Shown here in pieces: positions 1 through 48,731 of a stretch of DNA of 64,000 nt (positions within the stretch are counted from its first letter, which is position 1; each line of letters opens with the position of its first letter). The notes beneath the pieces are model-generated. The model saw only the letters and a program-made list of their open reading frames with translations, did no database searches and was not told the origin of the DNA. The translations under genes were made by a program, and so were the position numbers. The DNA is from Escherichia coli (GTDB lineage Bacteria > Pseudomonadota > Gammaproteobacteria > Enterobacterales > Enterobacteriaceae): NCBI RefSeq assembly GCF_003334765.1, contig NZ_QOWT01000022.1. One strand, written 5' to 3'.

Positions 1-1325
1 ATCCCGCCATCTGCGAATCCCTCAATATTTCTTATTGCATCCCCCTGTGAAGATAATAATTGTCGCCCGGCATCCACTCCACGTCCGTCATCCCAGCCAC
101 GAATAAATTCACCGCGTAAATCAGGCAATTTATTTGTCGGATAAACCTTTGCCAGTTCCGGGTATTCTTCAGCAGAAAAAGCCGCACCATTGCATTTTAG
201 CCAGCCTGTTGGCGGAGTGGCGGAAGGCCACGGGACAGGCACACCAACGGGTAATGCCGAACCTTCTCCCAAACCAAGGTATGTGAGAAGACCAGCTACA
301 TCCTTTCCACTCAAATTAGTCAGCGTATTGTCCAGCGGTTGTTTACCTGCCAGCGCATTAAGCATTGTCGTGGCAAAGTTCGGATCATTCCCCAGTGCCG
401 CCGCCAGTTCGTTCAGTGTATCCAGTGCCGCAGGTGCAGAACCCACCATTGCCGCAATCGCCGATTTCACAAAAGCCGTAGTGGCAATCTGTGTATTGTT
501 GACCGACTGCGCCGCCGTGGGGGCTGTTGGCGTTCCGGTGAGTGCCGGATTCGACAGCGGCGCTTTCAGTGCCAGCGCATTGTTAATGGTGGTACTGAAT
601 TTCGGGTCATTGTTAATGGCTGCGGCTATTTCTTTCAGCGTGTCCAGCGTGGCTGGCGCACCATTAATCAGGGCCGTCAGTGCCGCCTGAACAAATGCGG
701 TGGTCGCAAGCTGAGTGGTATTATTCCCCGCCGCTGGCGTTGGCGCTTTGGGGGTTCCGGTAAATGTCGGACTTTCTTTGGGTGCATACTGTGAATGCGG
801 GTCCAGTGCGGCAAGATGTTTTGCTATCAGGTCATCCACGTACACCTTCAGCTCCAGTGCCTTGTCATCCACATACTTGCGGGTTGCCAGCACTACAGCA
901 GGGTCGATTTTCAGGATGATATTGCCCGTACTGCTGGTAATCAGCACCATGCGCACGGTCTGGGTACGCCCACTGCCTTCAGCCAGTTGCGGCTTATAGC
1001 TTTCCGGGCAGTTACCCACGGCAATCAATGCCCCGGACTCATCAAACAAGCCCACTTCACGTATCCACCAACCGCCCTCGTTTTCAGGGATCACCTGTTC
1101 AGCAATAATCTGGCTGCTGTTCTGCGGGTCGATATAGAGCATATTCAGCGCAGCCCGGCGTTTCTCATTTACCAGTGCTGTCTGCTTTGCGTCCGGCGTT
1201 GGTAATGTTCCGCCGCCATCGCCGACCGCCATATGGGTAATTTTTAAAGGCACACCGAGCGCGGCGGCGCTGGCAAGTTTCGCCGCGCCAATATCCGTCA
1301 GCAGGGTATAAAATTTTGTGCTCAT
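1..1325 (-). CDS. Tail fibre protein (P2 gpH-like), N-terminal part only; 3' end lies beyond the window edge
   Basis: Hand translation of minus strand from ATG at 1325-1323 gives MSTKFYTLLTDIGAAKLA... with the conserved P2-type tail-fibre N-terminal domain; frame stays open to position 1; start overlaps gpI stop as ATGA; not in the ORF track because no stop lies inside the window. Confidence 0.8.
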   Translation of the reverse strand, partial: MSTKFYTLLTDIGAAKLASAAALGVPLKITHMAVGDGGGTLPTPDAKQTALVNEKRRAALNMLYIDPQNSSQIIAEQVIPENEGGWWIREVGLFDESGALIAVGNCPESYKPQLAEGSGRTQTVRMVLITSSTGNIILKIDPAVVLATRKYVDDKALELKVYVDDLIAKHLAALDPHSQYAPKESPTFTGTPKAPTPAAGNNTTQLATTAFVQAALTALINGAPATLDTLKEIAAAINNDPKFSTTINNALALKAPLSNPALTGTPTAPTAAQSVNNTQIATTAFVKSAIAAMVGSAPAALDTLNELAAALGNDPNFATTMLNALAGKQPLDNTLTNLSGKDVAGLLTYLGLGEGSALPVGVPVPWPSATPPTGWLKCNGAAFSAEEYPELAKVYPTNKLPDLRGEFIRGWDDGRGVDAGRQLLSSQGDAIRNIEGFADGG

Positions 1326-1927
1326 GGATTCACTCTCATTGTGTCAATAACATGGACCGCCCCGCCTTCATGCGCGGTGCCGCCGGAAATAATTGTTTCG
1401 TTGATATACGGATAGATCGTGATTTCTTCGCCAAGATAACTGGCGGCTCCCACCCAATGCGGGCCGCTGGTCTGCAGATTGATGGACATGCCGATCATGT
1501 GACGGCTACATGGTTTGGCATCGCTTATCAGTCGCTCAAGTTCCAGATAGGTATCTTCAGTGATGCCCTGATCCTGCACGCCGATATCCAGGCGAAACGT
1601 GCCTGGTGTTTCTCCGGTCTGCCACCACTCAATAATGCGGATCAGAAAGCCGAACGGCTCCACCACCCGCCGCACGGCACTGGTGGTTCCTTTATGCTGA
1701 TGAATATAAAAAGCATCCTTCACCACCTGGCGTTTGACACTTTCCGTCCAGTCCTCGTCCCAGCGATCCACAGAGAACGCCCAGGCGAGATAAGGCAGGA
1801 AACTGACCGGACAGGTCGTTGGATTCCACAAGTCACGCAGCGGCACCTGCAAATCAGAAATCCCGCTGCAGGTTTGCGCCAGTCGGCGCTCCAGTGAAGT
1901 TGAACCCGGTGGCAGCAGACTATTCAT
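1322..1927 (-). CDS. Baseplate assembly protein (P2 gpI-like)
   Basis: 201-aa ORF; position between J and H; ATGA-type overlaps with neighbours. Confidence 0.75.
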   Translation of the reverse strand: MNSLLPPGSTSLERRLAQTCSGISDLQVPLRDLWNPTTCPVSFLPYLAWAFSVDRWDEDWTESVKRQVVKDAFYIHQHKGTTSAVRRVVEPFGFLIRIIEWWQTGETPGTFRLDIGVQDQGITEDTYLELERLISDAKPCSRHMIGMSINLQTSGPHWVGAASYLGEEITIYPYINETIISGGTAHEGGAVHVIDTMRVNP

Positions 1928-2828
1928 CCGTTCCTCCGTTGGTTACGCTCCACTGCGTACATGATGCCGCCTGTGTTTTGTTCAGGACCACATCCGCCAG
2001 CGGCGAAGCCAGCTCCACACGCTGCACACCCTCAACATGCAGGGCGGCAAAGATGGCGCTACGGCGAATATCCCGGCCAAGACGCGTCTGACTGGCGATG
2101 TACTTCTGCAGACTGGCTTTTGCCGCTGCCATTACCGGCTCTGCTTCCGGTCCCGGATAGAGAAAAATGGTGGCTTCCACGCGGTACGGGATGATTTCTG
2201 CGCTGCGAACCGTCAGACGGTCAGCCACCGGGCGGACGTTCTCACTGTTCAGGGCTTTCTCCACCACATCCAGCAAGTCTTTTTCTGCTGTTCCATCGCC
2301 TTCGCGGCTAAGGACAGTCAGCACCACCTCTGCAGGTGCCGGACTGGTTGCACTGGCATCCGCCACCCGACCGTCGGCGCTTCGGGCATGAAATTCATAA
2401 GCTGCAGTTGGCCCCGCAACTGAAAGCCCTTCAAAGGCTGCAGGCACACGCAGGCGTAACGCTTCATCGCTTTCCATCACAGCTGCAACGGGCGGCACAG
2501 CGTCATCATCAGCAGGCGTCACCGTCAGGCGTTTCACGTTGTAGTTGGCAGCGAGCTGGTCAAGATCGCCGCCCATCGCATAAGCCACCATCACCGCCTG
2601 CGCGGCTTCGTTAATGCGCTGGCGCAGAAGCAACTCACGGTAAGCGTTCTCCTGCAACAATTTGGTGACGGGTTCAGATTCCAGTTCCAGCGTGCGGATC
2701 ACTGCTTCCTGCTCATCTTTCGGATGAAGCGCCACAAATTCTGCCTTGCGTTCGGCAAGCAGCGTCTCAAAGTCCGGCACATCCACAATCTGCGGCGCAG
2801 GCAACTGCGAAAGGTCAATCACTGCCAT
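1920..2828 (-). CDS. Baseplate assembly protein (P2 gpJ-like)
   Basis: ORF 1920-2867; start chosen at internal Met (MAVIDLSQLP...) giving 302 aa, the P2 gpJ size as recalled; position in W-J-I order. Confidence 0.75.
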   Translation of the reverse strand: MAVIDLSQLPAPQIVDVPDFETLLAERKAEFVALHPKDEQEAVIRTLELESEPVTKLLQENAYRELLLRQRINEAAQAVMVAYAMGGDLDQLAANYNVKRLTVTPADDDAVPPVAAVMESDEALRLRVPAAFEGLSVAGPTAAYEFHARSADGRVADASATSPAPAEVVLTVLSREGDGTAEKDLLDVVEKALNSENVRPVADRLTVRSAEIIPYRVEATIFLYPGPEAEPVMAAAKASLQKYIASQTRLGRDIRRSAIFAALHVEGVQRVELASPLADVVLNKTQAASCTQWSVTNGGTDE

Positions 2829-3174
2829 TCTCTGCTCCTGTTGATACGGAAAGGGAAACAGGCACACCGTTATTACGCCGCCCGGTCAGCTCCACCACCA
2901 TTGAACCGTCAAAATCGCTGTTGATGGTGATGGAATCCAGCGTCAGCCGTGGCTCCCAGCGACTCAGCGCCACATACACTGCCGACATGACCTGCAGGCG
3001 TAATGCCGGATTTTGTGGCTGGTCTATCAGTGCCGACAGCAGAGAACCATATTCCCGACGGGCAATACGGCTACCCTGCGGTGTCAGCAGAATGTCCCGC
3101 ACCGACTGGCGCAGATGGTCAATATCAGTAATGGCTTTGCCGCTGGTATTGTTCATCCCGCTATAAAGCGTCAT
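2815..3174 (-). CDS. Baseplate assembly protein (P2 gpW-like, GPW/gp25 family)
   Basis: 119-aa ORF; start overlaps gpV stop as ATGA; position between V and J. Confidence 0.75.
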   Translation of the reverse strand: MTLYSGMNNTSGKAITDIDHLRQSVRDILLTPQGSRIARREYGSLLSALIDQPQNPALRLQVMSAVYVALSRWEPRLTLDSITINSDFDGSMVVELTGRRNNGVPVSLSVSTGAENGSD

Positions 3175-3749
3175 ACCGGACCTCCGGTTGTGTCGCCGCC
3201 TTTCAGGACGCCAGTATGCTGATGCGCATCAACCACAATCCCGTTAGAGCTCATCGCTCCACCGCCCTGGGTAACGCCACCATTGATCACCACTTCGCTG
3301 TTAATACGCGTGCGGTCAGCCTCCAGCATAAACTCACTGGTTTTCAGGGTGATATTGTCAGCGGCCTCAATGACCATTGATTTGATGCCCCTGACATACC
3401 AGCGCCCGGTGGCGGGTTCGTATTCAAACCAGCCGCCGTCAGGATGTTCTGTCACGCAGGCGTCCGCCGACGTCGAAGGTGGCGCGAACTGATTCGAATA
3501 GATGGCGGGTAACGCAAAGGCGGTTTCCAGATTGCCGCCCAGACTCAGCAGCACCACCTGCTCACCTTCCGATGGTCGCCACCATGTGCGGGCATTACCC
3601 GCGCGCAGCGTCAGCCAGTTAATCCAGTTGGTTTCAAGGTCGCCCGTTTTCACCCGACAAAGCCAGTTTTCCCGGTCCACTTCGGTGACTACACCTATGC
3701 GGATCAGATTGGTGATAAGGCGCATGATTTCGGTTAGTTGTGCGTTCAT
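3171..3749 (-). CDS. Baseplate spike/assembly protein (P2 gpV-like)
   Basis: ORF 3171-3992; phage-like sequence begins at internal Met (MNAQLTEIMRLITNL...) at 3749; the upstream in-frame part is AT-rich insert DNA and unlikely to be coding. Confidence 0.7.
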   Translation of the reverse strand: MNAQLTEIMRLITNLIRIGVVTEVDRENWLCRVKTGDLETNWINWLTLRAGNARTWWRPSEGEQVVLLSLGGNLETAFALPAIYSNQFAPPSTSADACVTEHPDGGWFEYEPATGRWYVRGIKSMVIEAADNITLKTSEFMLEADRTRINSEVVINGGVTQGGGAMSSNGIVVDAHQHTGVLKGGDTTGGPV

Positions 3750-3852
3750 AGATATATGATGACAGCTGAAAACTTGTTTATAACTTCTTGCAAATTGTGG
3801 TATCGATGGTACAAATTGATAAAAGGATAAAAAACAACCAATAGGTGGATAA

Positions 3853-4659
3853 ATGAGTGTTATGAATCCAATAAGTTCTAATATATTTAATGCTGAATTT
3901 TTAAACACCCCGGCAGCGGCACTTGCCGCATGGATTTCCATTATTGGAGCTGTTATAACTTTGGTGACGATAGTTATAAGAGCACTATTCAAATATAGAA
4001 AATCTCATGATGTAATTTTGAAAAAATCAGGAATACCTGCGTTTATATTGAATTTTTTTCTTATACGAATATCATTAAAAAGGCTGCCTACTATCACATG
4101 GGCTGAAAAATCAATCACGGTTCTCTTTTCACTTCTTTTTTTGTGTGCAATTTATATTTTTGGTCCAGTTTTCATCCAAGCCATTAGAACCCCACCAAAT
4201 AGCACATTGCTTTATTGGATAAAATCCGGTGAATCATTTTATATGTCAAAAAAACTGGCGACTGCAGCTACAATATTAACCACTCCTGATTGGGAAATAT
4301 CAAAGGATGATTGCGAAGAGTCATCCTCTGCCAGTACAGAGAAGTACAAATCATTAACTATCGAACATAAAGAAATTCTTTGTAAACTACTAACCACTGA
4401 TGAAGGGAATGCTTACATTGATGAAGAAGTCAAGAATTTCGTTAAAGACAAATTCTTTATCTATTCCTTTGCCCCAACAACCATATTTATTCTATTATGG
4501 ATTTCTTTGGGTTTTATACTGACCATTCACTATTCTAAAAAAGTTAGGAAATATATTCTGACTGAACAAAAAAATGCAATTCATTGGGCATATGGTGAAT
4601 TCAAGACAGAAGGAATCTATTCAATATATCAAGAGTTAGAACGTAAGACTCACCATTAA
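3853..4659 (+). CDS. Hypothetical polytopic membrane protein (moron inserted between tail genes S and V)
   Basis: 268-aa ORF, strongly AT-rich unlike flanking tail genes; several hydrophobic segments (e.g. AALAAWISIIGAVITLVTIVI, ITVLFSLLFLCAIYIFGPVF, TTIFILLWISLGFILTI); no recognisable domain. Confidence 0.6.
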   Translation: MSVMNPISSNIFNAEFLNTPAAALAAWISIIGAVITLVTIVIRALFKYRKSHDVILKKSGIPAFILNFFLIRISLKRLPTITWAEKSITVLFSLLFLCAIYIFGPVFIQAIRTPPNSTLLYWIKSGESFYMSKKLATAATILTTPDWEISKDDCEESSSASTEKYKSLTIEHKEILCKLLTTDEGNAYIDEEVKNFVKDKFFIYSFAPTTIFILLWISLGFILTIHYSKKVRKYILTEQKNAIHWAYGEFKTEGIYSIYQELERKTHH

Positions 4660-5047
4660 GACCCAACAAACGACGCTCTGCGTAACGCACTTCCGGTCCT
4701 TTGCGGCTGACGCGATCGCGCAGGCCATAATGGTGAACGCGGGCAATGCGCTGCACCTTACCTTCAAACTGCACGCTGGCAGAATCGGCGCTGGCGGCAG
4801 TTTTCAGGTATTTGGTGGTGCGCAGCTTTGCAAACATCTGACGTTTGATGCGGCCTTTTTTACTGCGCGCCGTGACCTTGCGCGGTTCATAACTGCTGCC
4901 ATCTGGATTGCGCTGCATCCTGATATTCTGCTGCTGTGTCCGGCGCAGTTCCTGCGCCAGCTGGCGCATCATGCGGCTTCTTGCGACTGGTTCCAGATTC
5001 GCCAGTAAGGCACTAAGCCAGTCGTCCACCTTCTGCAGTTCAGCCAC
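4601..5047 (-). CDS. Tail completion / virion morphogenesis protein (P2 gpS-like); last ~19 codons encoded by AT-rich insert DNA
   Basis: 148-aa ORF with basic gpS-like sequence; position next to R; 3' end 4601-4659 overlaps the convergent moron ORF. Confidence 0.7.
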   Translation of the reverse strand: MAELQKVDDWLSALLANLEPVARSRMMRQLAQELRRTQQQNIRMQRNPDGSSYEPRKVTARSKKGRIKRQMFAKLRTTKYLKTAASADSASVQFEGKVQRIARVHHYGLRDRVSRKGPEVRYAERRLLGLNGESYVLTLDILNRFLLS

Positions 5048-5498
5048 GTTTCACCGTCCACATTTCTTCAGGTTCATCGGGTTCTGCTACCGCTTCAACG
5101 CTCGACACACTGCCGTCAGTGCTGACCAGCACACGTTCCGTCAGTTGCAGGTTAAGGCTGATATCACAGACATCGTTGCGCAGAATATCCACCTCAAAGG
5201 TAAATAGTTTTTCCCGTAACGCCGGGTTATTGATGGCATCGGGCTGGTTATCCCGCAGCCACAGCAAAACCGGGGCCATCAGCAGATTCTGGTCGCCGCT
5301 GAAATCCTCAATCACCACGTTCAGGGTGTAACCACGCAGCCCTACGAGTTCACTAAAGGCAGTATCTTTCACCTGATGGAGCCGGACCTGAACCAGGAAA
5401 TTTACGGCCTGCCGGAATATCTGTCCGCCATTCCGTCCGCCTTGCTGAACGAGTCCGCTACGCTGTTCCGGCGTAAATACTACATCAATGGCAGTCAT
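5040..5498 (-). CDS. Tail completion protein (P2 gpR-like); N-terminus possibly not native
   Basis: 152-aa ORF; C-terminal ~100 aa look gpR-like (YTLNVVIEDFSGD...LTERVLVS); N-terminal ~40 codons are antisense to the portal fragment. Confidence 0.65.
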   Translation of the reverse strand: MTAIDVVFTPEQRSGLVQQGGRNGGQIFRQAVNFLVQVRLHQVKDTAFSELVGLRGYTLNVVIEDFSGDQNLLMAPVLLWLRDNQPDAINNPALREKLFTFEVDILRNDVCDISLNLQLTERVLVSTDGSVSSVEAVAEPDEPEEMWTVKRG

Positions 5499-5906
5499 GC
5501 AGGGTTCATCATGTATATGACCGACGCCGCGCAGAACCAGGAGGACGTGAACAACATCCGCCAGGCCATGAAAAGCGCTAAAGGACCGGGCAACTTCCGC
5601 AACCTGTTTATGTATTCACCCAACGGCAAAAAGGACGGGATTCAGATAATCCCGCTGTCAGAGGTAGCGGCAAAGGATGAGTTTCTGAACATTAAGAACG
5701 TGAGCCGAGACGACATGATGGCTGCACACCGCGTTCCGCCGCAGATGATGGGGATTATGCCGAGTAATGTTGGGGGATTTGGGGATGTGGAAAAGGCGAG
5801 TAAGGTGTTTGTCCGTAACGAATTGATACCGCTGCAAAAGCGAATTAAAGAAATTAATGAATGGTTGAGTGATGAAATAATTTCTTTCCAACCATATGAA
5901 TTATAA
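5376..5906 (+). pseudogene. Portal protein fragment (P2 gpQ-like, C-terminal portion only)
   Basis: 176-aa ORF ending ...NVSRDDMMAAHRVPPQMMGIMP...; portal-like C-terminus, about half the expected length; directly abuts gpR on the opposite strand with no capsid, terminase or lysis genes between. Confidence 0.6.
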
Positions 5907-5907
5907 T

Positions 5908-5934
5908 AAAGTAGGGCAAATAATGCCCTACTTT
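5908..5934. terminator. Bidirectional stem-loop between convergent portal fragment and 285-aa cargo gene
   Basis: Perfect inverted repeat AAAGTAGGGC-(AAATAAT)-GCCCTACTTT flanked by A/T runs. Confidence 0.6.
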
Positions 5935-6785
5935 AACCAAATATTATAATCCAATCTTCCTACGTATCTTGAAAAAACAGCCAGAGCAATTGCTTGCCCT
6001 ACACTTGTTAATTCAATTCCTTGATAGTTGCTCTTTGAAAATTTTTCTAAAAATGCAGACACATGAGGGGCAACTAACTTAAGATTTGAAATATATGCAC
6101 TCTTATCTTTTATATCAGTCGGATATTTACTCATAAAATAGTCTTCAACATCCATCCCTAAAAAAGTATTCCATGAACAAGCCCCTGCATATTGAATGTG
6201 ATATATCTGGGCTTGAGACAAATTAAACCCATTAGTATACATTGATTCAAAGTTTCTAAAATTGTGCTCCAACAAATCCAATCGAACACCATTAACAGGG
6301 TCTTTGATCTCAACATTCTTGAGAAGAAAAACTATCGTTATAAGTGATATTTGTTGCTGTGTTAACTTGGGAACGACGGTAACTGCCTCCGTTAAAACTA
6401 TATCTCTAAAATCGTCATTGTTATTGGAGACTCGTTCAACTAACAACTGAGAAAGCACATCCATATTAGCTTTCTTTCCCTTCCTGGCTGATGACTTTAA
6501 TGCCTCAGTCAATGTAGCCTGAACGTCCGGATCGCAAAATTTATCAATAATCAATCTATCAACGTTTTTTGTTAAATCCGAAACGACACGCTCTTCAAAA
6601 TCTTTTGCATTCTCTTGAGCTGCAGCATAAGCAACATCTTTCAATTTTGGAAACTGATTTTCGAAGAGAATGTTGAATAGTTCTCTAACCTCGGAAAACG
6701 ACATCCCTGAAACATTTACATTATTTCCAGCTTGAATTGCATACGAATTATTACCTATTTGTTGCTTTTGCTTATCACTAAACAT
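5928..6785 (-). CDS. Hypothetical protein, 285 aa (AT-rich cargo, cos-proximal)
   Basis: Long ORF in AT-rich DNA; no domain recognised; N-terminal low-complexity motif IGNNSYAIQAGNNVNV. Confidence 0.65.
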   Translation of the reverse strand: MFSDKQKQQIGNNSYAIQAGNNVNVSGMSFSEVRELFNILFENQFPKLKDVAYAAAQENAKDFEERVVSDLTKNVDRLIIDKFCDPDVQATLTEALKSSARKGKKANMDVLSQLLVERVSNNNDDFRDIVLTEAVTVVPKLTQQQISLITIVFLLKNVEIKDPVNGVRLDLLEHNFRNFESMYTNGFNLSQAQIYHIQYAGACSWNTFLGMDVEDYFMSKYPTDIKDKSAYISNLKLVAPHVSAFLEKFSKSNYQGIELTSVGQAIALAVFSRYVGRLDYNIWLK

Positions 6786-6794
6786 ATATCCTCC

Positions 6795-7040
6795 TTATTT
6801 TTTATCACCTGTATTTATACAATCAATTTTAATATCACCTCTAGCCTGGACAGCAGTTGAATTATCACCAACTGATTGGCTCATAGAATTATATTTATTT
6901 TTTGTAGTGATAAGTAATCCAGCTAAAGCGCTAACTGCAGCCAAAAATGCAACAATAGAATCAAAACCAGGATCCATATAAAGCCATAATCCTGCAATCG
7001 ATGCCAGCATACATGTAATGACTATTGCAAAAATTTTCAT
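6795..7040 (-). CDS. Small membrane protein, 81 aa, two predicted TM helices; co-oriented 9 bp upstream of the 285-aa gene
   Basis: Hydrophobic segments IFAIVITCMLASIAGLWLY and IVAFLAAVSALAGLLIT; C-terminal tail VGDNSTAVQARGDIKI resembles the N-terminus of the downstream protein. Confidence 0.55.
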   Translation of the reverse strand: MKIFAIVITCMLASIAGLWLYMDPGFDSIVAFLAAVSALAGLLITTKNKYNSMSQSVGDNSTAVQARGDIKIDCINTGDKK

Positions 7041-7345: not shown

Positions 7346-8347
7346 ATGGGTGGAGAGACTTCGGCTATACAACGAGTCGCGGGTAAGATTTCTGATGATA
7401 TTTTCTCAGTGTTCAAATGGGATCGTGCCGCTAGAGCGGACATGAATTGGGATTGTTGCCAAGAGGCTCATTCCAAGAAAACACATCCAAGCGATGTTGT
7501 ATTTTTCTACATAGATCCATATGAGGAGGAAATGGTCTATCTCAACACAGACCTCAAAAGCTATGCAGAAGGTACTATTGGGAAAAAAATAGTCGAGGGA
7601 GCTTTAACATCGCTTGCTTTAGCTACCGAGTGTGCAAATGTCAGTGAAGAATGGCGATTGAAATATGTTCATGATGATTCTTTAGGTTATAACGTAAGAG
7701 GGTTATTATTCTTATATAACCATGATAATTTATATGATAAAGACTTCTATGAGAATATTACAAAAAAATTAGATCACTCATCTATAAATTGCCCTCCAAA
7801 CATCAAACTACATTTGCTTGACCCTTATAAAATATCAGATTTGATAAACATATCTTCTGACATAACTAAGTTAATTGGTTCAGGCAAACTTCCTCAACCT
7901 GATAAGTTCACATATTATTATCCAGATCTTTCCCTAACAAGAATAAAGCACCCTATTAATCAGACAACACCTGCAACAATTGAATTATTAACATCACCAT
8001 ACATTATAATAAAGCATGAGGCTTTCAGTTGGCTCAGGGATAAAAACCCTGAGGGATATGTTGTTTATTACAATCAACCGGGGGATTCAGTAGACGAATT
8101 CGTTTACTTCTTTGATATGTTATCAACTTATCAGATATTAACCGAAGGTAAACCAATCGTATTACGCCATTGTCACATTCACCCAAATGAAAATGCCATT
8201 CATCATTTTGAAAGAGCGAAAAAGAAATACAGCACAGACTGGCTCTTAGGCGAGGATGAAAGACTTTTTCTTAAAATTGACTTCGACAAGACAGACAAAA
8301 TTGTTGTTGAATATAATCTTGAACAAATCGGCATGGAGCAACGATAA
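7346..8347 (+). CDS. Hypothetical protein A, 333 aa (first gene of three-gene cargo operon)
   Basis: ORF with AGGAG-like RBS ~10 nt upstream; AT-rich; stop overlaps next start (TAATG); no Walker A, RT or TIR motif seen. Confidence 0.7.
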   Translation: MGGETSAIQRVAGKISDDIFSVFKWDRAARADMNWDCCQEAHSKKTHPSDVVFFYIDPYEEEMVYLNTDLKSYAEGTIGKKIVEGALTSLALATECANVSEEWRLKYVHDDSLGYNVRGLLFLYNHDNLYDKDFYENITKKLDHSSINCPPNIKLHLLDPYKISDLINISSDITKLIGSGKLPQPDKFTYYYPDLSLTRIKHPINQTTPATIELLTSPYIIIKHEAFSWLRDKNPEGYVVYYNQPGDSVDEFVYFFDMLSTYQILTEGKPIVLRHCHIHPNENAIHHFERAKKKYSTDWLLGEDERLFLKIDFDKTDKIVVEYNLEQIGMEQR

Positions 8348-9426
8348 TGGCTAAAAAACTATATTTCGCAACTGATAAAAATATTTATGATGCATTACAT
8401 CATAAAAGGATAACCGCTGCAAAGTTGCATGAATTATTGTTGAATCGAGGTGTGTTTTTATCACCAGAACTCGACAAGGAAATACTAATCGAGGAAATAT
8501 CCAAACTTCCTCACGGATTTAATGAATTAGAACACATAAAAAAACTGGTCAAAACATATGACCCAAGGGAAAGCACTACTAGTGTGAGCTTCCAAACCTC
8601 AACAAATCAGGCCGAATTAAAAAGTGCTGCTGAAGCACTAAAAAAAACATGCTCCCCTAGTAAAGGTCAAAGCCTGAATATTGTAGCTAAAAAAGATGGC
8701 TCGCTTACAGTAGAATACAAATATGAAGAAATAGACCTGTCTAAAACTGCATTACGTCAGATCGACAAGCGGAATGTTATAATAGAACTTCGCCCTGGAG
8801 CTGACAAAGTTGAAGTACGTATGCCTCAAAACCCCGAGGCAAAAAAAGTTATTGAGAGCTTGCAAAACGAGCTATCTAAAATCAAGTCCGAACCTATCGA
8901 GCGCTTCGAAATATCATTACTAGCAATAACTGATCCTACATTGCGAAGTCAGTTTTTTCAGGAATTAATGAATGGTCTACGCGGTTATGAGACTGATGAC
9001 GTAACAAAAGTCGAATTAAATCGCAGTACTGATGCTAGTGAGGATGAAGACAAGGAAGAAACTATTGATACCGGATTTGTTAAGAAAGCCGTCCTTAATG
9101 GTGAAGGGGTAAATAGTTCAGCTATATTTTCTCAACTACATGAGAAAGGTTATTATATCGGGCGTATTGCATGGTCTTCAAAGCCGACAAGTGGAATTGG
9201 AGACAGAATCAACGTCGAAGCATTTTTCAAAGACTCAGAAAAATGCTGTGACTTTGCCTATCAAATTAAAGGTATAAACAATCAAAAAGAAGACGGTTTC
9301 AATGTAACCATTCGCGCGGCAACGGCACAAGAGAAAAAACATATTAGTGAATTAATTGAGTCCGCCGCTGAAAATGCCTATAATATAATAATAGGATCAG
9401 AGGTGAACGAAGATGAAAAAGGTTAA
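8347..9426 (+). CDS. Hypothetical protein B, 359 aa (second gene of three-gene cargo operon)
   Basis: ORF coupled to gene A by a 1-nt overlap and to gene C by a 14-nt overlap; acidic stretch DASEDEDKEE; no recognisable domain. Confidence 0.7.
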   Translation: MAKKLYFATDKNIYDALHHKRITAAKLHELLLNRGVFLSPELDKEILIEEISKLPHGFNELEHIKKLVKTYDPRESTTSVSFQTSTNQAELKSAAEALKKTCSPSKGQSLNIVAKKDGSLTVEYKYEEIDLSKTALRQIDKRNVIIELRPGADKVEVRMPQNPEAKKVIESLQNELSKIKSEPIERFEISLLAITDPTLRSQFFQELMNGLRGYETDDVTKVELNRSTDASEDEDKEETIDTGFVKKAVLNGEGVNSSAIFSQLHEKGYYIGRIAWSSKPTSGIGDRINVEAFFKDSEKCCDFAYQIKGINNQKEDGFNVTIRAATAQEKKHISELIESAAENAYNIIIGSEVNEDEKG

Positions 9427-10096
9427 ATGGCTTAAGTTAAACATACGGCTTGAGTTTGAAACAGCCGTTAGACGTCTTTCTCTTGATTCTTTTACAGAGG
9501 ATAAAGGGAAAGGGTTCATTTTTGATAAAATACGCCATGATTTTGCAAATGGTCGCTTTGTCGAGCGTATTGTTTATCATGATAAAATATTAAGCTTTGA
9601 CGGAAGCGAAACTACCGTTGAAAGAATCGAATATCGCACCACAAATTTTAGCGTGGCTTTAGACTCTCTTCCTGTAATGCAGATTACTAACCCACCCAGA
9701 ACTTTAAAGCCTTTTTCGCAGGCTTTGGTAAAAAATCTTGGCTTAGGTGTTAGTTTGGAAGAAATTGACATAAACCCTATAGACTGGCTTAATGAAATAT
9801 CTTCAAGTGTAAATATCAATTTAACACAACTTGATATTTCAAGGGTTAGAGTTTCTGATTACGCCACAGCTAAAATGCAAATAATTGGCAGCAATGATCT
9901 TAGGAAGTATTATAAAGAAGAATTAGAGGGTAAAAAAATAAGAATTGACAGGCTTGTTTGCTCTGTTAATTCATTAGAATATTCCGGTAAGCTCAAGATC
10001 ACCAATAGCGGCCTTGCTTATATTGATGTTAGAAATGAGAATGAGTTTACGAAAATCGTTTTTGATACGTTAAAAAAAGTCACCCTTCAATCATAG
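9413..10096 (+). CDS. Hypothetical protein C, 227 aa (third gene of three-gene cargo operon)
   Basis: ORF starting inside the end of gene B; followed by a strong hairpin; no recognisable domain. Confidence 0.65.
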   Translation: MKKVKWLKLNIRLEFETAVRRLSLDSFTEDKGKGFIFDKIRHDFANGRFVERIVYHDKILSFDGSETTVERIEYRTTNFSVALDSLPVMQITNPPRTLKPFSQALVKNLGLGVSLEEIDINPIDWLNEISSSVNINLTQLDISRVRVSDYATAKMQIIGSNDLRKYYKEELEGKKIRIDRLVCSVNSLEYSGKLKITNSGLAYIDVRNENEFTKIVFDTLKKVTLQS

Positions 10097-48633: not shown

Positions 48634-48731
48634 GCCTGATGCGGCGTTAACGCCTTATCCGGCCTACAAAGTCCTGCAGATTCAATATATTGCAGGTACT
48701 GCGTAGGCCTGATAAGCGTAGCGCATCAGGC
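48634..48731. repeat. REP/BIME elements between ybiU and ybiT
   Basis: GCCTGATGCGGCGTTAACGCCTTATCCGGCCTAC and inverted GTAGGCCTGATAAGCGTAGCGCATCAGGC are typical E. coli REP palindromes. Confidence 0.8.

Follow-up and report, generated by a model that had tools for sequence, protein, structure and literature searches.

A DUF6216-family membrane-protein gene in the variable orf30 slot of a P2-like Escherichia coli prophage: a possible anti-phage cargo gene

Introduction

What is an AT-rich gene for a predicted membrane protein doing between two tail genes of a P2-like prophage, and does it serve the phage or the host? The question arises from a 64,000-nucleotide stretch of Escherichia coli DNA (NCBI RefSeq assembly GCF_003334765.1, contig NZ_QOWT01000022.1; hereafter the window, with positions counted from its first letter). 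In it, a 268-amino-acid (aa) open reading frame (ORF) on the plus strand, at 3853-4659, is flanked by the tail genes for gpV and gpS, each on the minus strand. We refer to this ORF as the cargo gene and to its product as the cargo protein. An earlier reading made from the letters alone (the sequence-only reading) had proposed that it is a horizontally acquired moron, inserted between two normally adjacent genes, and possibly a superinfection-exclusion or abortive-infection membrane protein.

By the criteria of Hendrix and colleagues, a moron is an extra gene of distinct composition, lying between genes that adjoin each other in related phages, with its own promoter and terminator that permit expression while the prophage is repressed. 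The orf30 region, the TO region and the Z/fun region are the three loci of horizontally acquired genes in P2-like phages (PMC3091744), and phage R18C has a different ORF in the orf30 region (PMC6823313). P2 itself holds the non-essential Orf30 (261 aa; NP_046770.1, phrog_2407) in its S-V gap, on the antisense strand and just past the activator site of the V promoter (P2 annotation). Orf30 and the cargo gene have in common this slot, the antisense orientation and a start just past the Ogr box of the V promoter. The S-V gap of the window is this documented orf30 variable locus and no new insertion point, and the cargo gene is almost certainly a real, horizontally exchanged gene in that known slot.

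Results

The cargo gene is real and under purifying selection

The ORF starts with ATG behind a Shine-Dalgarno-like AGGTGG (3843-3848), and RefSeq annotates gpV, gpS and the cargo gene in the same way on DNA that is identical or nearly so. The sequence-only reading had described a plus-strand 268-aa ORF with hydrophobic helices between gpV and gpS, and both the ORF list and the three hydrophobic segments of the product bear this out. Its placement between the tail genes is right as to the flanks but not as to the 3′ end, where the 19 terminal codons of the cargo gene and of gpS overlap in antisense. A 273-aa minus-strand ORF (3171-3992) was rejected as an artefact of ORF calling, an upstream extension of gpV beyond its genuine start, the ATG at 3749.

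The guanine-plus-cytosine (GC) fraction was 0.327 in 3750-4650, 0.33 in the cargo ORF and 0.27 at its third codon positions (GC3), compared with 0.565 in gpV, 0.576 in the first 129 codons of gpS and 0.557 in window positions 1-3749. The claimed AT-richness relative to the tail genes (0.33 versus ~0.56) was thus upheld on calculation.

An AT-rich ORF of this kind could be a spurious or decaying frame in junk left by a recombination scar, and a low-complexity, hydrophobic product would suit that explanation. However, stops make up ~7.5% of random codons at the composition of the cassette, and by arithmetic the chance of 268 open codons at GC 0.33 is ~1e-9. The product is a member of a Pfam family and has a confident AlphaFold2 (AF2) model, and the signals upstream of the gene are conserved. 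The ratio of nonsynonymous to synonymous substitution rates (dN/dS, Nei-Gojobori) between the cargo gene and its orthologues of five genera was 0.15-0.33. Given the chance estimate, the Pfam-recognised homologues and the dN/dS values, the ORF is a real gene under purifying selection, and on account of that selection the spurious-frame explanation was rejected as extremely improbable.

The cargo protein belongs to the DUF6216 family

The cargo protein is identical to RefSeq WP_001573379.1, which is named "DUF6216 family protein", and its significant hidden Markov model (HMM) match to Pfam DUF6216 (PF19723; independent E-value (i-E) 7e-12) spans residues 72-237 only. It had no match in PHROGs at E<=0.01. 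Among 5.8 billion proteins searched, 32 homologues of 50-99% identity were found in Escherichia, Salmonella, Klebsiella, Citrobacter and Serratia, and all 31 of these matches that are full-length carry a precomputed PF19723 assignment. When a profile was run across 1.84 billion representatives of protein clusters, it matched just 49 clusters. Within E. coli, the complete 1.2-kilobase (kb) region was present in 111 of 5,426 complete genomes (RefSeq-annotated). Carriers include the E. coli B lineage (BL21(DE3), C41, C43 and BLR), in which the DUF6216 gene is also named Ybl42; BL21(DE3) has WP_000115390.1, with ~99% DNA identity across the region.

The DUF6216 members compared here have an architecture of ~230-300 aa with three transmembrane (TM) helices and a Cys pair between TM2 and TM3. 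The cargo protein conforms to it and shows W147, P114 and F129 as further hallmarks of the family. The enterobacterial P2-slot clade has a C-terminal extension (~246-268), which is exactly the part that overlaps gpS, whereas distant members are without it. Members outside P2 contexts lack the C-terminal ~20 residues, and the extension is specific to the gpS-overlapped arrangement.

The S-V slot is a recurrent site of exchanged cargo

We surveyed the slot in the 80 IMG/VR contigs with the closest gpS, 78 of which hold both S and V. The slot was empty in 58 of the 78 loci, with 78 base pairs (bp) between S and V at GC 0.53, and the same 78-bp spacing was found in Klebsiella phage 4LV2017. The cargo gene of the window occupied the slot in eight loci (855-856 bp, GC 0.32-0.33), and eight other cargo types occupied it in 12 (752-1,902 bp, GC 0.31-0.37). 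Most slot cargos are one gene, antisense to S and V.

By the definition of Hendrix and colleagues, the cargo gene is an extra gene between genes that are adjacent in relatives (those with the 78-bp spacing), and its composition is unlike that of its flanks (GC 0.33 versus 0.56-0.58). The sequence-only reading was correct that S and V are normally adjacent insofar as the empty loci and 4LV2017 are concerned, but P2 has Orf30 there. Its call for a comparison of S-V regions across P2-like prophages returned a recurrent variable slot, and horizontal acquisition of the gene agrees with its AT-richness, its absence from most close relatives, the unrelated AT-rich cargos in the same slot and the orf30 literature. 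A conserved P2-family structural gene was rejected as an identity for the ORF, since the gene is missing from most relatives.

PADLOC matched several of the other cargos to defence families. The cargo of locus L096 is a 409-aa SIR2-domain protein (LmuA/ThsA-like, ~1e-20), that of L087 a 266-aa TIR-like protein (PDC-S66, 9e-7; SpbK, 1e-4) and that of L049 a 584-aa ApeA-like protein (1.4e-13). The five other types (L026, L027, L042, L090 and L037) had no defence-database match. L026 and L027 hold two other membrane proteins of ~253 aa, L042 a 271-aa protein with an N-terminal CxxC...CxxC pattern, L090 a gene pair (202 aa and 96 aa) and L037 a 481-aa protein.

Similarity to 4LV2017 ends directly after the gpV ATG and returns inside gpS at about codon 129 (~4650-4660). 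The cassette between these points brings its own V-promoter region with the Ogr box and its own AT-rich, diverged last 19 gpS codons, which have a GC of 0.33 versus 0.58 for the remainder of gpS. These cassette-borne versions of the Ogr box and of the gpS end point to a probable exchange among P2-like phages, with recombination at the start codon of gpV and within gpS, rather than to insertion in an empty gap. The proposed insertion between V and S therefore stands as far as cargo in the slot is concerned, but recombination in the flanking genes is probably how it arrived.

The cargo protein is predicted to span the inner membrane three times

Strong hydrophobic segments (Kyte-Doolittle) lie at residues ~23-45, 87-108 and 203-225. 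The AF2 model agrees with them (predicted local distance difference test (pLDDT) 85.1, predicted template-modelling score (pTM) 0.70) and contains a very long helix at 183-247. The N-terminal tail has no lysine or arginine, the loop 46-86 has nine and the C-terminal tail has eight. Applying the positive-inside rule to this distribution gives a likely topology model of an inner-membrane protein with the N terminus out, three TM segments, the C terminus in and residues 112-200 in the periplasm. C154 and C177 are the sole invariant residues across 41 diverse members, and the position of both in the domain between TM2 and TM3, predicted to be periplasmic, fits a disulfide. The protein would expose a ~90-residue periplasmic alpha/beta domain stabilised by the C154-C177 disulfide and would keep a basic helical C-terminal tail in the cytoplasm. 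Neither a lipobox nor an enzymatic motif was found in its sequence.

P2 Orf30 is probably a remote relative

The cargo protein and P2 Orf30 are similar in size (268 versus 261 aa) and in slot GC (0.33 versus 0.35). Both have three TM segments in similar places and two invariant cysteines between TM2 and TM3 in a DC...C-x-LL context. The predicted elements after TM2 are also alike, with four short strands, a short helix with D-C (Cys1), a helix with Cys2 and a very long helix that includes TM3. The two differ in the cytoplasmic region between TM1 and TM2, which is helical, ~80 residues long and marked by a conserved RD[IL]Q.F motif in Orf30 but ~40 residues long in the cargo protein. They also differ at the gene end: in P2, a terminator separates orf30 from S and the two genes do not overlap, whereas the cargo gene shares 59 bp with gpS and has no detected terminator.

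A bridge family connects the two proteins. Protein P0085, the weakest match of the profile search, matched Orf30 over the N-terminal half (BLASTP 9e-5). A precomputed PF19723 assignment is attached to P0085 and to each of its ten relatives, one of which is a Bordetella "DUF6216 family protein". In hhalign comparisons, the bridge family (A4) matched the cargo clade with 96% probability (E 1e-9) and the Orf30 family with 85% probability (E 6e-6, 189 columns). Among all slot cargos, the A4 HMM matched the cargo protein and Orf30 only. The joint alignment showed a common motif, D-x-[KR]-L-K...E-x-R-D-[IL]-[QE]-x-F-[KR]-[IF]-I-x-G-I-x-V, together with a W-x-D motif and the invariant Cys pair.

Direct comparison of Orf30 with the cargo protein fell short of a sequence or profile match (BLASTP E 0.04; Orf30 HMM E 0.16), and Orf30 had no match in Pfam. 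Several results pull against common descent. The hhalign comparisons made without the bridge were weak, both for the shallow alignment of the cargo clade against Orf30 (E 0.24) and for the deep DUF6216 alignment against Orf30 (E 2e-4, 46% probability). The AF2 model of Orf30 reached only moderate confidence (pLDDT 75.7), and a BFVD structure search gave no hit. On the profiles, motifs and predicted structure taken together, we consider P2 Orf30 a probable remote relative of the cargo protein within a DUF6216 superfamily. If Orf30 does belong to the same superfamily, the cargo gene would be a divergent allele of the classical occupant of the slot and no novel intruder.

A putative promoter overlaps the Ogr box

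The 103-bp spacer between V and the cargo ORF had 84% mean identity among six genera. Within it, TCTTGCAA (3786-3793) and TGGTACAAATT (3807-3817) were invariant in the six genera, even where gpV is a pseudogene. The plus strand can be read as a -35 element TTGCAA (3788-3793), a 16-nucleotide spacer and an extended -10 element TGgTACAAA (3807-3815) that overlaps the Ogr box, a plausible reading that makes this pair the putative extended -10 promoter of the cargo gene. The Ogr box itself is a TGT-N12-ACA dyad whose distance to V equals that of the annotated P2 activator binding site.

In the lysogen, the cargo gene would be on from this weak extended -10 promoter of its own. Because the promoter overlaps the Ogr box, we propose that Ogr activation of the V promoter may occlude it when the late genes switch on.

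The gene outlives the prophage

The orf30 slot described here belongs to a P2-like prophage that is integrated by ybjL, the attachment locus in both this window and BL21, and that is defective in the window. Relative to an otherwise 100%-identical intact copy (NZ_CP148585.1), the window prophage has a 7,058-bp deletion with 8-bp microhomology and a junction at 5325-5332. The deletion takes the first ~46 gpR codons, lysC/B, lysozyme, holin, X, L, M, N, O, P and the start of the portal gene (affecting 5040-5906). The prophage is defective since no capsid, terminase or lysis genes are left. A 152-aa ORF at 5040-5498 is truncated gpR fused to portal-antisense sequence.

The DUF6216 gene was intact in eroded prophages of several genera. 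Adjoining ybjL, it was found in Citrobacter youngae (L099), where V, S and R are only fragments; in a Klebsiella-type contig with P0008 (L100, 895-1668), where S is frameshifted, V and R are fragments and a reverse-transcriptase gene is kept; and in enterobacterium L098 (1836-6804), where the remnant retains CI, an Old-like AAA ATPase and a GIY-YIG gene. Adjoining rpoD-mug, it was found in Serratia rubidaea (L097), with gpS intact and only the first 80 residues of V, and in Klebsiella aerogenes (L004), with gpS near full length and V and R fragmented. In hosts of relatives with 35-40% identity, it is a lone gene adjoining ybjL and no phage gene was detected. The persistence of purifying selection while the phage decays indicates that the gene benefits the host independently of phage propagation, and the L098 and L100 remnants suggest that defence-type cargo is selectively kept during prophage decay.

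These contexts bear on whether the cargo gene is instead an accessory of P2-type development that benefits the phage and not the host, such as a holin/antiholin-like lysis timer or a tail-assembly aid. It does sit among late genes with an Ogr box immediately upstream, and over TM1 the HP1 holin family of Pfam was matched weakly (i-E 0.098). However, the gene is antisense to the late operons, is absent in 58 of the 78 close relatives and remains whole in prophages whose lysis, head and tail genes have been lost by deletion or decay. The holin match is not significant, and P2 Orf30 is annotated as non-essential. We regard a phage-benefiting accessory as very improbable. A holin of the HP1/P2 gpY type (PF16080) was rejected on the same i-E over one TM helix, the length of 268 aa versus ~70-150 aa, and the position outside the lysis cassette on the opposite strand.

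Relatives also occur away from P2-like prophages. In Bordetella bronchialis, a DUF6216 relative lies near gyrB on a part of the chromosome that is not mobile. Another relative, 26% identical, adjoins a GAAD-GASH-DO-GTPase conflict system in an integrative island (L102). This distant member (5001-5741) comes right after the AlpA gene of the island, which also has CbtA and DUF932, and immediately precedes the GAAD/GASH/DO-GTPase/GAP1 set, a predicted conflict system.

Under a second alternative, the cargo protein would be a factor of lysogenic conversion or of the host envelope with no connection to phages. It would provide immunity or protection against toxins that act on the periplasm or the membrane (colicins, tailocins, contact-dependent effectors), or would modify an envelope process. 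Solitary chromosomal relatives without nearby phage genes (in Bordetella; by MlaC/PRC genes; by ybjL with TetR/MFS) are in line with such a factor, as are the predicted periplasmic domain with its conserved disulfide and the purifying selection that continues without a functional prophage. Yet no similarity to known immunity protein families was found, the contexts examined show no adjoining toxin gene, and the neighbours in prophage slots are defence-type genes. We hold an envelope factor of this kind to be unlikely.

An anti-phage role at the envelope is possible

The SIR2, TIR and ApeA-like genes in sister slots, the retention in decayed prophages alongside other defence-type genes, the conflict system next to the distant member in L102 and the defence-hotspot status of the other two P2 loci place the cargo gene in an anti-phage context. 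This context is compatible with the superinfection-exclusion or abortive-infection guess of the sequence-only reading. By association, the cargo protein may have an anti-phage role at the envelope, which we favour among the functional readings as a serious possibility, though not as the expected outcome. There it would act for the benefit of the host against other incoming phages. For a single integral-membrane protein with a predicted periplasmic domain and no enzymatic one, the likeliest mode would be superinfection exclusion at the inner membrane, interfering with genome entry; as a specific assignment, drawn by analogy, superinfection exclusion is doubtful.

Membrane-damaging abortive infection (Abi) is the less likely mode. 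In that case the cargo protein would be an effector or sensor that depolarises or permeabilises the inner membrane and kills the cell before the phage matures, as with RexB-type or other single-protein Abi systems. Three TM helices followed by the very long helix, Abi-type genes (SIR2, TIR, HEPN/ApeA-like) in the same slot and the single-gene form of the cargo in mobile elements are compatible with it. On the other hand, there is no PADLOC match and no recognisable sensor or enzymatic domain. The conserved disulfide domain, predicted to be periplasmic, suits an extracytoplasmic interaction better than the sensing of cytoplasmic phage products, and a stable lone gene in eroded prophages speaks against a strongly toxic product. 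We rate this mode as rather improbable.

Joined with the Orf30 relationship, the anti-phage reading leads to a tentative proposal. DUF6216 and P2 Orf30 might form one superfamily of single-protein inner-membrane anti-phage factors, acting by superinfection exclusion or envelope-level abortive infection, with the S-V slot as a third defence hotspot and with the genes kept by enterobacterial hosts, including BL21(DE3), after the prophage has decayed.

Several points stand against the anti-phage reading and its setting. The defence inference is guilt by association alone, and the Bordetella-type non-mobile contexts fit a housekeeping envelope role equally. The cargo protein matched 0 families of the PADLOC-DB v2 defence models at E<=1, gave no match or noise only in NCBIfam and gave noise only against PDB sequence profiles of solved structures. 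Structure searches matched uncharacterised proteins only. A tblastn search of 50,697 deposited phage records with the cargo protein gave no match even at E<=1, so these records document no viable phage that carries the gene. A strict consensus scan near the cargo gene called neither a promoter nor a terminator, and a literature search on the function of DUF6216, ybl42 and orf30 found no functional study or datum.

Other features of the window and the intact copy

The coordinates of the slot are collected in Table 1. Elsewhere in the window, three consecutive AT-rich genes at 7346-10096 on the plus strand match PADLOC Hp1, Hp2 and Hp3 end to end (E 1e-239, 3e-248 and 2e-157). Hp1-Hp2-Hp3 is a catalogued three-gene candidate defence system and lies in the classical P2 hotspot between the portal and replication genes. 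The same portal-adjacent hotspot holds, at 5928-7040 on the minus strand, a 285-aa protein of the LPO_1073/Vpar_1526 family (NCBIfam NF045477, 3e-72) together with a protein of 81 aa whose N-terminus is hydrophobic, and neither had a PADLOC match. In the chromosomal part, the ES036 (CssrF) small RNA at 48668-48710 on the plus strand (41.6 bits) was the only Rfam match above the gathering score in the window.

The record with the intact prophage copy, NZ_CP148585.1 (L101; 55.6 kb), is labelled a plasmid. It holds the intact P2-like prophage together with the chromosomal genes rcdA, ybjJ, mdfA, dacC, gsiABCD and moeAB, and is probably a misassigned chromosomal segment.

Table 1. Features of the S-V slot and its flanks in the window.
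Feature	Position	Strand	Basis
Cargo (moron) gene, DUF6216-family predicted inner-membrane protein, 268 aa	3853..4659	+	ORF, Pfam, RefSeq, dN/dS, three TM segments, AF2
AT-rich exchange cassette, ~905 bp, GC 0.33: V-promoter/Ogr-box region, cargo gene and diverged gpS 3′ end	3750..4655		GC profile; similarity to 4LV2017
Divergent control region, 103 bp, gpV start to cargo gene start	3750..3852		conserved across genera
TGT-N12-ACA dyad, Ogr/Delta-type late-activator box of the gpV promoter	3796..3813		sequence reading; aligned with P2 and 4LV2017 dyads; P2 annotation
Putative sigma-70 promoter of the cargo gene	3788..3815	+	inferred; bases invariant in 6 genera
Convergent overlap of cargo gene and gpS, 59 bp	4601..4659		ORF coordinates, RefSeq annotation, junction alignment
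gpV, baseplate spike/assembly protein, 192 aa, left anchor of the slot	3171..3749	-	RefSeq; gpV of relatives 95-97% identical
gpS, tail completion / virion morphogenesis protein, 148 aa, right anchor; C-terminal 19 residues cassette-encoded	4601..5047	-	ORF, RefSeq, junction alignment

Discussion

The slot is a textbook variable locus of P2, and the gene had already been annotated by RefSeq. To this we add that DUF6216 and Orf30 are probably connected, a model of the topology that includes a predicted disulfide, and the recombination junctions together with the antisense gpS overlap. We further add the mix of defence-type genes in the S-V slot and, for several genera, the persistence of the gene beyond the decay of the prophage. 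If the cargo protein does exclude phages, it would represent a new membrane-level defence family, and the S-V slot would be established as a defence hotspot from which discovery could be anchored. If the superfamily reading is also true, an orphan gene of a model phage would acquire a function after 25 years, and the common laboratory strain BL21(DE3) would prove to have a defence gene that had gone unrecognised. If the cargo protein excludes no phages, it would be an ordinary uncharacterised cargo gene.

The nearest comparison for the locus is with the other variable sites of P2. Exclusion phenotypes have been demonstrated for Old, Tin and Fun. The old/tin (gene A-portal) and fun(Z) loci resemble the orf30 slot as sites of AT-rich exchanged cargo between conserved genes that varies among close relatives. 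They differ from it in that they are recognised defence hotspots, although defence-type domains occur in the orf30 slot too. The papers of 2022 that defined P2 defence hotspots cover the A-portal and fun(Z) loci only (PMC9122126; PMC9519451). A 2026 preprint reports defence hotspots within P2 late genes, and no hotspot content was found in PMC13100340.

For the protein, the comparison is with T4 Imm, P22 SieA, HK97 gp15 and lactococcal Sie2009, to none of which did the cargo protein show detectable sequence, profile or fold similarity. These four are inner-membrane superinfection-exclusion proteins. By analogy, the cargo protein is predicted to resemble them in being a small single-gene inner-membrane protein with an extracytoplasmic part that is expressed apart from the virion genes.

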